Shown one piece after another: positions 23,682-29,468 of a DNA stretch of 29,468 bases. Positions within the stretch are counted from its first letter, which is position 1. Every line of letters starts with the position of its first letter. The translations under genes and the position numbers were made by a program. Below the pieces are notes generated by a model. It was not told the DNA's origin and did no database searches. It worked only from the letters and a program-made list of their open reading frames with translations. The DNA comes from a virus (taxonomy: Duplodnaviria > Caudoviricetes), in IMG/VR virus record IMGVR_UViG_3300011339_000926, positions 1 through 29,468 of that record. The stretch is one strand, 5' to 3'.

Positions 23682-24422
23682 TTAGAATTTATTTAAAATA
23701 CGTTCAAGTTGAGAAAGAGGAACAATATAATTATCTCTTTCTTGCTTATCACTTCCAGCAAATAAAACTCCAATAACATTACCATATTTGTTAACTACAG
23801 GAGATCCTGAATTTCCGGGATAAACTACAGCAGTAGAAGCGTAGGACAAAAAAGATCTAATACAAATAAATTCTCTTCCAAACATAAGTACTTCAAATGC
23901 ATTAAGATCATATACTTGACCACGACATGATTGTCTAGTTATAGCAGAAGAATCAATTAATCGCACAGTATCATATCCAATGTATTCACCTTGAGAAACA
24001 GTAAGTTGGCGGAGTCCCGGATGTCCTACCACATAATGAAAATCTCCTTTATTAGGATGAGATCCCAGATTTAATGGAGATAATCGTTTATCGCCTTCTA
24101 ATAAACATAAATCATGTCTATTATCTTTGTAGATAACTTTTTTAAAAGAAGGAGATAATCCTTCATCTTGTTTAATTACCATCCAGCCGCCAACAGCACC
24201 TTCACAGACATGTTTATTTGTAACAATAAAATGATTACCTGAAGCAGCTTTAATTGCAAACCCTGTCCCGCCTCCACCAGCCGGAGAGAGAACTTGAACT
24301 ACGGATGAACCAACATTATTTCTTAAATAAGAATTATGTAATTCAATATGTGAAATACCTATATAAATAGATAGAATAGCACATGCTATCCCAAGACTTA
24401 ATTTTTTTAGTTTTTTTAGCAT
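23682..24422 (-). CDS. Trypsin-like serine protease with N-terminal membrane anchor/signal
   Basis: GTGF, VTNKHVC (His), DLCLL (Asp), PGNSGSPV (Ser); N-terminal LSLGIACAILSIYIGI. Confidence 0.85.
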   Translation of the reverse strand: MLKKLKKLSLGIACAILSIYIGISHIELHNSYLRNNVGSSVVQVLSPAGGGGTGFAIKAASGNHFIVTNKHVCEGAVGGWMVIKQDEGLSPSFKKVIYKDNRHDLCLLEGDKRLSPLNLGSHPNKGDFHYVVGHPGLRQLTVSQGEYIGYDTVRLIDSSAITRQSCRGQVYDLNAFEVLMFGREFICIRSFLSYASTAVVYPGNSGSPVVNKYGNVIGVLFAGSDKQERDNYIVPLSQLERILNKF

Positions 24423-24463: not shown

Positions 24464-25927
24464 CTATCGTCGTTTAGACTTAGCACCGAAAATTTGTTTA
24501 TATATTTCTTCAGGAGTTGGTTTTAAAAAACTTTGCCTATTATTTATATATAAATTAGCCGTATCATATCCATAAGTTGATGGATAAGGATTTTTATTAT
24601 AGTTAATAGATCTAACAAAATATAATAAAGCATCCACTCCATCGTAATGTCCCTCATCTTGAGATCGAGCAAAATCGTCTTTAGTTGATTTGTCTTTCCA
24701 TTTACAATGTTTTAAATGTCTTATTAATGTTTCACATTTAGGATTTATAATAATGTGTTTATTAGCCAACATTACACGAAGTTTATTAATATTAGCTAAC
24801 TTATCGTTTTTACTAGCAATAGCAAAATCAATCTTATGCATAGGATTATTTTTTTCAGAATAAATACTAATCTCTTGAATTACAAAAGGATTGATATCGG
24901 ATACCCGCATTTCAGGTCTAATAAATTCATTTGTCAAATCATTTGTCCATAATGAGGATTCTTTATCCTGAATTTCTTTTGTAAAGACGGGTAGATGAAT
25001 TTGTTTACCATTTCTTACTAGCTCGTCTTGAATGATTATTTTATCTTCTTTGAAATCATAATACCCAAATAGTACGACTGTCAAGTCTTTAAATCCAATA
25101 TCCATTGCAACGTATCGATGATAAAAAGGAGGCAGAGGATACTCCTTGACTATCTCAGTCAATAACTCGTCGTCAACCTCAGGCAATACTGAAAGTGTTT
25201 CGTCCTTAATGATTTCGCACATATACTCTCTACGAAACTGAGAGTTATTTCTACCGCCTTTAAATTTTGAAACAATATTATCTTTTTGTTCTCTGGTTAG
25301 TAAAGGATTGTCATCTAAAGTTTTTTTAGTTAGTAATTTATTAGATTCTGCTTCTTCAATAAATCCAACAAACTCATGATCCGGTTCAGCTGGTGGAGTT
25401 GATGCTAAGATGATTCTACCGCCCGTGTGGGTAGTTGTGGGAAATAAAACGGATTTTACGTTATAATCTAGTTTGTCACAAAACCCTGCCTCGTCTACTA
25501 GAATTAAATCCGATTTTTGACCTCGCAATCTTTCTGCAGAATTACCATCAGATCCAGCCATTTGAATTTGGCTGCCATTTTTAAATATATATACAAAACT
25601 AGATGCTATATATTCAGGCTTTAATTCTTCAGGACAATCATCAAATATTTCACGAAAAATAGGTTCAAATATAGTTCGAGCATGTAATTTTGTATCTGTT
25701 AATAGTTTAACGATTGTATTCGCTTTTGAAATACATTCAATAGTTGCAATTATTCCTAAACAATAAGATTTTCCTGTTTGTCTAGCTAACAACCAAACTA
25801 ACGTAGCTCCAGAGGGTGAATTCAAATATATATTATACATTTCTTTTTGAATTGCATGCATTTTATATTGAATCATACCTCTTCGCCATAGCTCATGACG
25901 AACGGCTTGCTTTGAAATAGAAGACAT
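24464..25927 (-). CDS. terL: Terminase large subunit
   Basis: Walker A ARQTGKS, Walker B LILVDEAG, motif C ASTP, FRREYMC, and nuclease motifs AMDIGFKD and HYDGVDAL. Confidence 0.93.
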   Translation of the reverse strand: MSSISKQAVRHELWRRGMIQYKMHAIQKEMYNIYLNSPSGATLVWLLARQTGKSYCLGIIATIECISKANTIVKLLTDTKLHARTIFEPIFREIFDDCPEELKPEYIASSFVYIFKNGSQIQMAGSDGNSAERLRGQKSDLILVDEAGFCDKLDYNVKSVLFPTTTHTGGRIILASTPPAEPDHEFVGFIEEAESNKLLTKKTLDDNPLLTREQKDNIVSKFKGGRNNSQFRREYMCEIIKDETLSVLPEVDDELLTEIVKEYPLPPFYHRYVAMDIGFKDLTVVLFGYYDFKEDKIIIQDELVRNGKQIHLPVFTKEIQDKESSLWTNDLTNEFIRPEMRVSDINPFVIQEISIYSEKNNPMHKIDFAIASKNDKLANINKLRVMLANKHIIINPKCETLIRHLKHCKWKDKSTKDDFARSQDEGHYDGVDALLYFVRSINYNKNPYPSTYGYDTANLYINNRQSFLKPTPEEIYKQIFGAKSKRR

Positions 25928-27270: not shown

Positions 27271-27466
27271 TTATATACTCCTCAAAATCATCTAACAATA
27301 TTTCACGCATTTCACGAACTGAAGAAAGAACCTCTATAAACATTTGTTCACAATACTCTATTTGATCTTCCGTTCCTTCATTTTCACAACAACTATGCCA
27401 ATAATTTAAATCCTCTACTAAATTCCCAAACATCTCAATTTTTAGGTTCATCGACGGATTTTGCAT
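27176..27466 (-). CDS. Hypothetical acidic protein (start may be 27433)
   Basis: Fills the gap between neighbours; helical E/D-rich composition. Confidence 0.55.
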   Translation of the reverse strand: MQNPSMNLKIEMFGNLVEDLNYWHSCCENEGTEDQIEYCEQMFIEVLSSVREMREILLDDFEEYINDCKVNEIPIDLGYWRVRKQLQESTFSLIKN

Positions 27467-27650: not shown

Positions 27651-27682
27651 TCCCAGCGACCTTGTTATGTTTCTATATACAA

Positions 27683-28245: not shown

Positions 28246-28444
28246 GAGGATGAATTCTCCTAAAAAGACCTATTTTATACTGTTTTTTTGAAGGAACCCA
28301 AGACAAATCATTAATAATCCATTCATATGCAATTCCACTCAACAAATAATCAGTTTTTTGTAAAAGGGTGCTGCGTCTATCTAACTCATGATCAATTTTA
28401 TCCATCAATCGTCTTTTACTCGAGTTTCTATATTTACGTTTCAT
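28238..28444 (-). CDS. Small basic hypothetical protein
   Basis: ATG 28444 has SD AAGGAG; 8-nt overlap with the next gene. Confidence 0.5.
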   Translation of the reverse strand: MKRKYRNSSKRRLMDKIDHELDRRSTLLQKTDYLLSGIAYEWIINDLSWVPSKKQYKIGLFRRIHPRV

Positions 28445-28496
28445 AGGGCTCCTTATCACAACGTAATACTATGTTTTTCTCATGTTCTCACATCAA

Positions 28497-28505
28497 AGTT
28501 GTTAA
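28497..28505 (-). promoter_or_regulatory. TTAACAACT motif (putative late promoter, first unit)
   Basis: Exact copy upstream of the first ORF of the module. Confidence 0.55.
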
Positions 28506-29057
28506 GTACTTAGAACATCTAAAAATTATATGTTTCTATACTTACAACTACCCTAACCTAGCATAATCACATTCTAGTTGTCAACTAAAACCTCTGTCCT
28601 TATATATGTAATATTATCATTAAATGATAAACCATAGTAACTTTGTTATACTTTGACCACCCTAACTCACAAACTACACCCCTTCTGATTCAAACAAAAT
28701 TATACCTATTTACTATTTTTATAGTATAGTCTGATAGGTAACCGCCACCCCATACCTAAAACGCATTTAAAGTCAAATATGACGTTTGAAAGGGAAACCT
28801 TATTAGGAAGGGTATGCTAGTATATATATAAAATATAATAATATACTAGTTACTACGCGTGAGATACTATGTTTCTATATTTATAAATACTGGAATTTAC
28901 TTGTGTAGTATACTTAGACATTGCAAACGAAAATGTCCCATAGGGGTGTCATATACAACAATTACAGCAACTTATATAAAAATATATAAATTATGCTTAT
29001 GAAGCATATAATTTCTGGGATAATATGGCATACTAGTTTTGAGATATATCTAATTTT

Positions 29058-29125
29058 TAGATGGTTGTATATAAGATTTATATACATCTAACCATATACA
29101 TTACCCATATACATTAACCATATAC
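29058..29125. repeat. Inverted repeat followed by ~3 tandem 13-bp repeats (CCATATACATTA core)
   Basis: tagatg-gt-tgtatataa-gat-ttatataca-tcta, then accatatacatta cccatatacatta accatatac. Confidence 0.7.
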
Positions 29126-29213
29126 CTCATAACTTAACCTAGTATCTTCATAGCTTGATAACCTCCCTATGGTATCAGATAACCTATGTTGTTATCTCAC
29201 TCAATACTAGTCA

Positions 29214-29230
29214 TGCAGATATCATGCCAA
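29214..29230 (-). promoter_or_regulatory. sigma54 (-24/-12) promoter, leftward
   Basis: TTGGCATGATATCTGCA has exact GG-N10-GC spacing and is close to consensus YTGGCACGNNNNTTGCW. Confidence 0.65.
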
Positions 29231-29268
29231 ACTATAGGATACTATATATCTATATATATCAGATAACG

Positions 29269-29419
29269 TGGTGTCTAAATGACACTACATGGTGTCACAT
29301 TGTCACTATTATGGTGTCACAATGACTCTAATAGGCTAAGTGCTTGAAAGTACATATATAGTGTCATATAGTCACTACATGGTGTCACATTGTCACTAGA
29401 TGGTGTCAGAGTGAACCAG
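29269..29419. repeat. Six phased 19-bp imperfect palindromes in two triplets (enhancer/operator array)
   Basis: Units start at 29269, 29290, 29312, 29359, 29380 and 29401, with consensus TGGTGTCACAWTGWCACTA. A 26-bp exact repeat occurs at 29283 and 29373. Confidence 0.85.
29337..29349 (-). promoter_or_regulatory. IHF-like site between the two triplets
   Basis: TTTCAAGCACTTA vs consensus WATCAANNNNTTR (1 mismatch). Confidence 0.5.
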
Positions 29420-29433
29420 TGCGGTTTACGTAG

Positions 29434-29446
29434 TTTCAATAGGTTA
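29434..29446 (+). promoter_or_regulatory. IHF-like site between the array and the rightward promoter
   Basis: TTTCAATAGGTTA vs consensus WATCAANNNNTTR (1 mismatch). Confidence 0.5.
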
Positions 29447-29449
29447 ATG

Positions 29450-29466
29450 TTGGCACGGTTCTTGTA
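29450..29466 (+). promoter_or_regulatory. sigma54-like promoter, rightward
   Basis: TTGGCACGGTTCTTGTA has a perfect -24 box; the -12 box is TTGT instead of TTGC. Confidence 0.55.
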
Positions 29467-29468
29467 GT

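Follow-up and report, generated by a model that had tools for sequence, protein, structure and literature searches.

The described system whose geometry comes closest to that of the palindromic boxes reported here is E. coli norVW, which depends on NorR, IHF, and sigma-54 and has three tandem palindromic sites within ~66 bp, IHF between these sites and the promoter, and a hexamer model (PMC2831303). In Desulfovibrio, orp1 and orp2 are reported to have divergent sigma-54 promoters that flank IHF sites, with a functional IHF site at -43 of orp2 and a known activator encoded by the host cluster (PMC3897727). For the PilR-dependent pilA promoters of P. aeruginosa, the PilR consensus is TGT-N11-ACA, as cited in PMC8035640. 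In phages, sigma-54-like promoters are already known, such as the mapped P015 of the lytic Pseudomonas phage YuA (10.1101/2023.10.13.562163), and so are clusters of host regulator sites, as phages of Alphaproteobacteria include a lytic one with an intergenic region loaded with CtrA sites, for which host-state sensing has been proposed (PMC9437464). A further report, PMC3627812, concerns FliA attack-phase promoters. Our literature search, which left most subscription papers outside, returned no enhancer/IHF/sigma-54 cassette at the head of phage early genes, nor the box described below.

Genomic context of the element

The DNA that we analyzed (the window) is an entire contig of 29,468 bp, and contigs from runs X1 and X6 extend past its right end. 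It codes on the minus strand for a virion module with the terminase large subunit (TerL, 24464 to 25927, identified by PHROG and Pfam matches), a P22-like portal, the major capsid protein, and tail fibers. A trypsin-like protease (23682 to 24422) sits between terminase and portal, and a Dps/ferritin-like gene (1217 to 1636) is found within the same module. TerL marks the late genes to the left of the element, which is the final 255 bp of a 1-kb noncoding stretch upstream of the virion module and ends with a rightward site only 2 bases from the end of the contig. To the right of the equivalent point, the relative G001 (85% TerL identity) carries small genes, amidoligase, GATase, and ATP-grasp genes, RNR, ERF, a primase-helicase, and PolB, all of them pointing away from the virion genes. 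Because of this layout, the element is likely to lie at the early/late divide, and early-type genes likely follow to its right in this phage as they do in its relatives.

The family is probably of podophage type, mostly lytic, and about 80 to 95 kb in genome size. Of 19 related records, 1 was found to carry a tyrosine integrase, in line with a lifestyle that is lytic for the most part. This sole recombinase among the 19 is a 177-aa tyrosine recombinase frame (G023:77175-78055) with a sigma-54-type site on the same strand, ~430 bp beyond its 3' end. The named habitats that share most with the contig are riverine and freshwater metagenomes. Searching the element against named phages with blastn gave no match, an Rfam search gave two microRNA matches attributable to chance, and a sigma-70 scan found 5 sites against 10 expected.

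Rightward site and its conservation

The element is probably an enhancer-dependent sigma-54 early promoter, served by a host activator and IHF, in a phage family that appears to be lytic. Host sigma-54 RNA polymerase would occupy the rightward -24/-12 site, with a bend introduced immediately upstream by host IHF, and a host AAA+ activator bound to triplets of 19-bp palindromes would open the promoter. Three dimers per triplet may assemble a hexamer, as with NorR, and early expression would depend on the state of the host regulator. A preliminary description of this DNA had already proposed a sigma-54, IHF, and enhancer anatomy, and for the rightward site it is upheld by the conservation of spacing, asymmetry, IHF gap, and box position both in relatives and in a second phage family.

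The main, early-directed site is located at 29450 to 29466 on the plus strand. It is present where it had been reported, with the qualification that it ends as GG-N10-GT and not as the GC that is usual in relatives; contigs of runs X1, X3, and X6, the first two of which may be where this DNA comes from, show no alternative letter for this -12 T, and the orthologous sites of L003, L106, and L114 end in GC. The site is kept in the same position in L003, L106, L114/L033, and L132. From consensus geometry, its start site is predicted at ~29477, just past the end of the contig.

Two sigma-54-type sites occur between 28461 and 29468, a count reached by none of 3,000 dinucleotide shuffles of that stretch. 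As the patterns used in the shuffles (sites, boxes, and IHF-like cores) were chosen post hoc from this same sequence, conservation in relatives is the stronger test. For this comparison, 52 dereplicated loci (<90% identity, >3.5 kb upstream) were drawn from 163 with a TerL match. Among sites anchored on TGGCAY more than 2 kb upstream of TerL, 75 of 275 had TGC at the GG-N10-GC offset, versus 4 of 295 downstream of TerL, and one base to either side of that offset TGC was found at 2 and 1 of the 275 upstream sites. The GG-N10-GC spacing of the original proposal is conserved in the relatives. Strict sites point to the early genes in 60 of 76 cases and to the late side in the other 16. At the level of loci, 29 of the 52 have at least one strict site, 17 have a cluster, and 23 have none, some of these perhaps explained by contig ends. 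Across 27 loci selected because they contain sites, asymmetric sigma-54-type forms (75 plus 21) outnumber symmetric ones (4 plus 1) by 96 to 5, so the sites are not a palindromic operator. The sites in relatives also fit the sigma-54 consensus given as TGGCAC-N5-7-TTGCT in PMC12316311 and as tGGcacg/tTGCt in PMC4641369.

A wide scan for IHF plus sigma-54 gave 102 distinct sites, mostly single (a second site in 16, two A boxes in 5, and two B boxes in 5), and it was not counted as support. An additional sigma-54-like match at 27386 to 27400 on the minus strand is kept in L003, but it falls within a small late ORF and its conservation may be that of the coding sequence.

IHF-like cores

Two oppositely oriented IHF-like cores had been noted previously, and both are there. 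The proximal one (29434 to 29446, plus strand) ends 4 bp ahead of the -24 TGG and spans roughly -43 to -31 relative to the predicted start, and the second one (29337 to 29349, minus strand) is reversed and lies between the two triplets of boxes. Both are candidate sites, identified by their match to the IHF consensus. Judged by shuffles, the cores alone are weak, as their count of two was reached in 53 of 3,000 shuffles of 28461 to 29468. Among the relatives, 13 of 67 early-directed sites, spread over 11 of 27 loci, have an IHF-like core whose end is 4 to 6 bp upstream of the TGG, a position matching that of the functional site at -43 reported for orp2 (PMC3897727). The second core between the groups of boxes is found also in L003, L024, and L114 and was not seen there in L106.

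Palindromic boxes

Upstream of the rightward site there are six palindromic boxes in two groups: a distal triplet at 29269 to 29330, with 15-bp cores starting at 29271, 29292, and 29314, and a promoter-proximal triplet at 29359 to 29419, with cores at 29361, 29382, and 29403, which are likely activator sites. Their number and their spacing of 21, 22, 47, 21, and 21 bp agree with what had been described. The GTGTC-N5-G(A/T)CAC pattern first assigned to them is literal in four of the six, with boxes 3 and 6 deviating, and from 29 boxes of six phages the true unit is a 19-bp palindrome, TRGTGYCA-N3-TGRCACYA. None of 3,000 dinucleotide shuffles (28461 to 29468) reached six boxes. The repeats are noncoding, and there is no repressor-sized ORF inside the element.

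The same boxes stand shortly upstream of early-directed sigma-54-type sites in seven relatives of one clade, in most cases with an IHF-like core in the gap; this is where the preliminary description had suggested searching for them. The closest box lies 48 to 71 bp from the early-directed TGG in six of six clade loci, and L065 is the seventh carrier. L106 and L114 have kept both full triplets while their sequence has turned over. A TerL tree with 37 hand-labelled rows places each of the seven carriers in one 13-row clade (99/95). The other members of this clade are two with arrays only, two that lack a cassette, one of PilR type, and one with a single site. L108 and L032 (69 to 72% TerL identity) are nested in the box clade and keep the first early gene with the cassette missing, so the cassette is dispensable family-wide. 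An apparent triplet in L063 was dropped, since it lies within a coding region.

We found no published activator consensus that matches the boxes. The NorR core, GT-N7-AC, is present in 7 of the 29 boxes (2 of 6 in the contig, by direct reading), and the locus further differs from norVW as described in PMC2831303 in having two triplets, no adjoining activator gene, and a phage context. The NmpR site, given as GCGCA-N5-TGCGC (PMC11841059), differs from the box. The slot itself can hold other sites, as TGT-N11-ACA pairs 18 to 19 bp apart occupy it in 5 of 16 distant relatives. This is the form of the PilR consensus cited in PMC8035640, but it has no occurrence in the contig and is absent also from L003, L106, and L004.

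A second phage family and the binder of the boxes

We searched IMG/VR with a pattern of one box, then a -24 element and TG, leaving the -12 C unspecified. The -12 C was nevertheless present in 14 of the 16 hits. A control in which the spacing was off by one base returned 7 hits; two boxes were found in none of these, and IHF in none. Six of the 16 come from a second family, whose small terminase is Sf6-like, whose portal is HTVC010P-like, and whose large terminase is unrelated to that of the contig (E>=1.2). In these six loci, the cassettes stand at the start of the early arm and have two to four boxes at about -112/-90/-68/-47 and one early-directed site, the closest box being 45 to 49 bp from the TGG in all six and a loose IHF match being found in four. 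In another 5 of the 16 hits, which are from large phages (L332, L342, L343, L334, and L345), the box and the sigma-54 site immediately precede an Hsp20 gene; three of these loci are near-identical, and three have a Pfam assignment. Given that unrelated phages share both the box and its geometry, we infer that the protein that binds it belongs to the host.

The second family also has internal cassettes (L358:11068-11224, L360:6774-6887, and L361:5658-5708), in which boxes are interleaved with reverse sigma-54 sites. Those of L358 and L360 precede an operon with ubiquitin-like, ThiF-like, and JAB-like genes (ThiF by match, the others by eye).

A phage winged-helix protein might instead bind the boxes, which would then be either replication iterons or operators that shut off an early sigma-54 promoter. 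A scan for box pairs gave four hits (L007 to L010), every one within an HTH_36 lambda-O-like initiator gene. The repeats in these genes are near-identical 19-bp palindromes that score 16 to 26 bits on the box matrix at a spacing of 21 to 27 bp. G001 encodes two small winged-helix proteins in tandem genes (L013:16494-17148), the 85-aa one with a faint HTH_36 match (E 0.0098). We nevertheless find this explanation unlikely. None of 19 relatives and none of 5 records of the second family has HTH_36 above the cut-off, G001 itself encodes a PolB and a primase-helicase, and its 79-aa winged-helix protein, present in 5 of 19 records (one of them with the other box type), was not found in the box-carrying G018. 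In addition, the boxes recur in unrelated phages always at a fixed distance from a sigma-54 site, and a sigma-54 promoter would still require an activator site. The boxes do resemble lambda-O iterons in being 19-bp hyphenated palindromes about two turns apart, but no HTH_36 initiator gene was found at the repeats, whereas those of L007 to L010 lie inside the initiator gene, in loci with no sigma-54 site. We take the likeness to be a case of convergent helix-turn-helix recognition.

Arrays of sites

Dense bidirectional arrays of sigma-54 boxes lie directly past the poly-C tract in L068, L160, L075, and L041. Some of the sites in them are 18 to 19 bp apart, in both orientations, so not all of them can be working promoters. 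As many as six tandem sigma-54-type sites are found in L004. Both kinds of cluster would suit docking or decoy sites that trap the host sigma-54 holoenzyme near the genome end (as a sponge, for end protection, or for DNA entry), with sigma-70-type promoters driving the early genes; the reverse sites interleaved with boxes in the internal cassettes and the close relatives that manage without a cassette are also in line with it. However, the gap to the IHF core and the distance to the boxes are both conserved, which a decoy would not require, and Hsp20 genes are found directly behind single sites. Decoys thus seem to us quite improbable as the main role of these sites, and an enhancer-dependent early promoter is the reading that we retain.

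Leftward site and the late side

A second site, at 29214 to 29230 on the minus strand, is a perfect GG-N10-GC match, as the preliminary description had stated. Together with the rightward site, it had been read as a candidate bidirectional switch. In such a developmental switch, one shared enhancer would serve two divergent sigma-54 promoters, early to the right and late to the left. The perfect match itself agrees with such a switch, as do the arrangement of boxes and IHF-like cores between the two sites, the presence of two leftward sites in both L003 and L024 (one in L003 ahead of a 56-aa ORF), and the 16 strict sites of relatives that point to the late side. Divergent sigma-54 pairs with IHF are moreover known in bacteria, as in the orp system (PMC3897727), although there the activator is known and here the leftward site is not conserved. 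Among the clade box carriers, it is shared only with the sister pair L003/L024; the strict site is present in two of the seven, missing in L106, L114, L004, L132, and L065, and missing as well in all six terminal cassettes of the second family. Past the leftward site, there are only minus-strand ORFs of 22 and 41 aa over ~750 bp before the late genes, with a possible genome end in between, and reverse sites are found also in internal cassettes that have no divergent ORF of at least 80 aa. We did not find, therefore, a divergent pair in which both promoters are conserved and each has a downstream operon. The site itself stands, but these observations argue only faintly for a bidirectional switch of two programs, and we give that version little credence. 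We regard this site as a likely accessory copy, giving a short leader transcript or acting as a polymerase parking site, and not the driver of the late program. Three 13-bp tandem repeats (29089 to 29127) lie downstream of it, and similar short repeats occur in the L032 segment.

The late side has an oriented motif of its own, which also speaks against the switch. Late-oriented TAGAAAC motifs lie within 28424 to 28877 on the minus strand (at 28430, 28538, and 28877), with further copies at 27675, 28015, 28058, and 24446. Upstream of TerL, 150 copies are late-sense versus 37 antisense in 30 loci. TAGAAAC is a candidate phage-specific late promoter, or else a candidate packaging signal or set of sites for packaging proteins.

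Between these motifs and the element, a conserved GTCCCATAGGGG landmark at 28935 to 28946 is a candidate genome end or packaging cut site. Its TGTCCCA is invariant in five of five aligned loci, and several related contigs stop at the equivalent poly-C/G tract (L040, L049, L055, and both ends of G015). The X1 contig runs uninterrupted across the landmark, and breaks in the assembly may account for the contigs that stop at poly-G/C, so we treat it as a candidate end only.

Because the boxes are arranged in triplets and lie ~330 bp from this candidate end, they might be thought to be terminase-binding sites or repressor operators of the lambda OL/OR type, the second of which had been raised as an alternative. 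Both roles are, in our opinion, highly improbable. The boxes are common to two families with unrelated terminases, and the distance from box to landmark varies more than twofold while that from box to promoter does not. The single tyrosine integrase among the 19 records goes against the OL/OR alternative; the element has no ORF of repressor size, as noted above, and no repressor family was seen among the proteins scanned in G001 and G008. Activator sites of a sigma-54 promoter thus remain our preferred reading of the boxes.

Activator and host

The preliminary description had allowed for an activator of either phage or host origin. The sigma-54 activator domain PF00158 was above the cut-off in 0 of 5, 0 of 23 (0 of 11 near-complete), and 0 of 5 records, with no sigma-54 activator in 28 related records (11 near-complete). 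With no phage-encoded activator found, the activator would therefore have to be a host one. For the clade of the contig itself, this absence is well supported but provisional, because G018 is the single near-complete record, out of 11, with the box type of the contig and the rest of the evidence comes from the partial G001 (70%) and G006 (44%). Two matches to PF00158 were set aside. The weak one in G001/G006 is a ClpX-like ATPase without GAFTGA, which in G001 (L013:7624-8553, ~308 aa) belongs to a phage family with many homologues, and the one above the cut-off in G034, an unrelated Hsp20 phage, is a two-AAA frame, likewise without GAFTGA.

In a set of 50,697 phage records, the named phage that best matches TerL (29.4% identity) and the capsid (29.9%) is one of Silvanigrella aquatica, which matches the portal too, at 28.5%. 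This agrees with the earlier suggestion of a host in the Bdellovibrionota, but that phage has no sigma-54 site and no box, so we take the match as a hint only. One GTDB match, at 41% to a 4-kb contig in a MAG, would indicate a Flavobacteriaceae host. A Shine-Dalgarno core precedes 20 of the 28 genes of the contig, versus 11% of random 20-mers, and to our knowledge Bacteroidota lack Shine-Dalgarno sequences; we did not accept the MAG match on account of this usage. A search for the host taxon through homologues of the ClpX-like and cytochrome c genes returned no taxa. The homologues of PolB are found in Salinibacter and cyanophages (21 to 27%) and do not decide the host, nor do those of a PhaR-like gene of L065, which are found in proteobacterial replicons (37 to 45%). 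This gene (L065:2616-2891) lies among the early genes and codes for a PhaR-type DNA-binding domain (PHB_acc_N).

Possible host-state control of early transcription

A sigma-54 promoter stays silent unless a host ATPase has been activated. With such a promoter at the head of the early arm, a host signaling pathway could decide when a lytic phage starts its cycle. As a tentative extension, which we hold to be possible and somewhat short of probable, two or more unrelated lytic phage lineages may make the onset of their transcription depend on a single, specific host sigma-54 activator that is undescribed and recognizes TRGTGYCA-N3-TGRCACYA. In one of the families, the enhancer would have been lost or exchanged for PilR-type sites, tuning the host signal that licenses infection, for example, stress or piliation. 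Compared with YuA, for which the available text of 10.1101/2023.10.13.562163 gives one promoter and neither activator sites nor IHF, a family-wide cassette would here head the early arm. The likeness to the CtrA phages lies in an intergenic region of a lytic phage with many sites for a host regulator, but binding was shown there (PMC9437464), whereas here it is predicted from sequence alone.

If the early promoter works as proposed, host-state sensing of the kind suggested for the CtrA phages would be extended to enhancer-dependent transcription; CtrA is not a sigma-54 activator. The family itself offers natural variants for comparison, with box type A, PilR-type sites, arrays only, or none of these. 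Were the 19-bp box to turn up at the sigma-54 promoters of a host, that host and its activator would both be named for these two families of uncultured freshwater phages.
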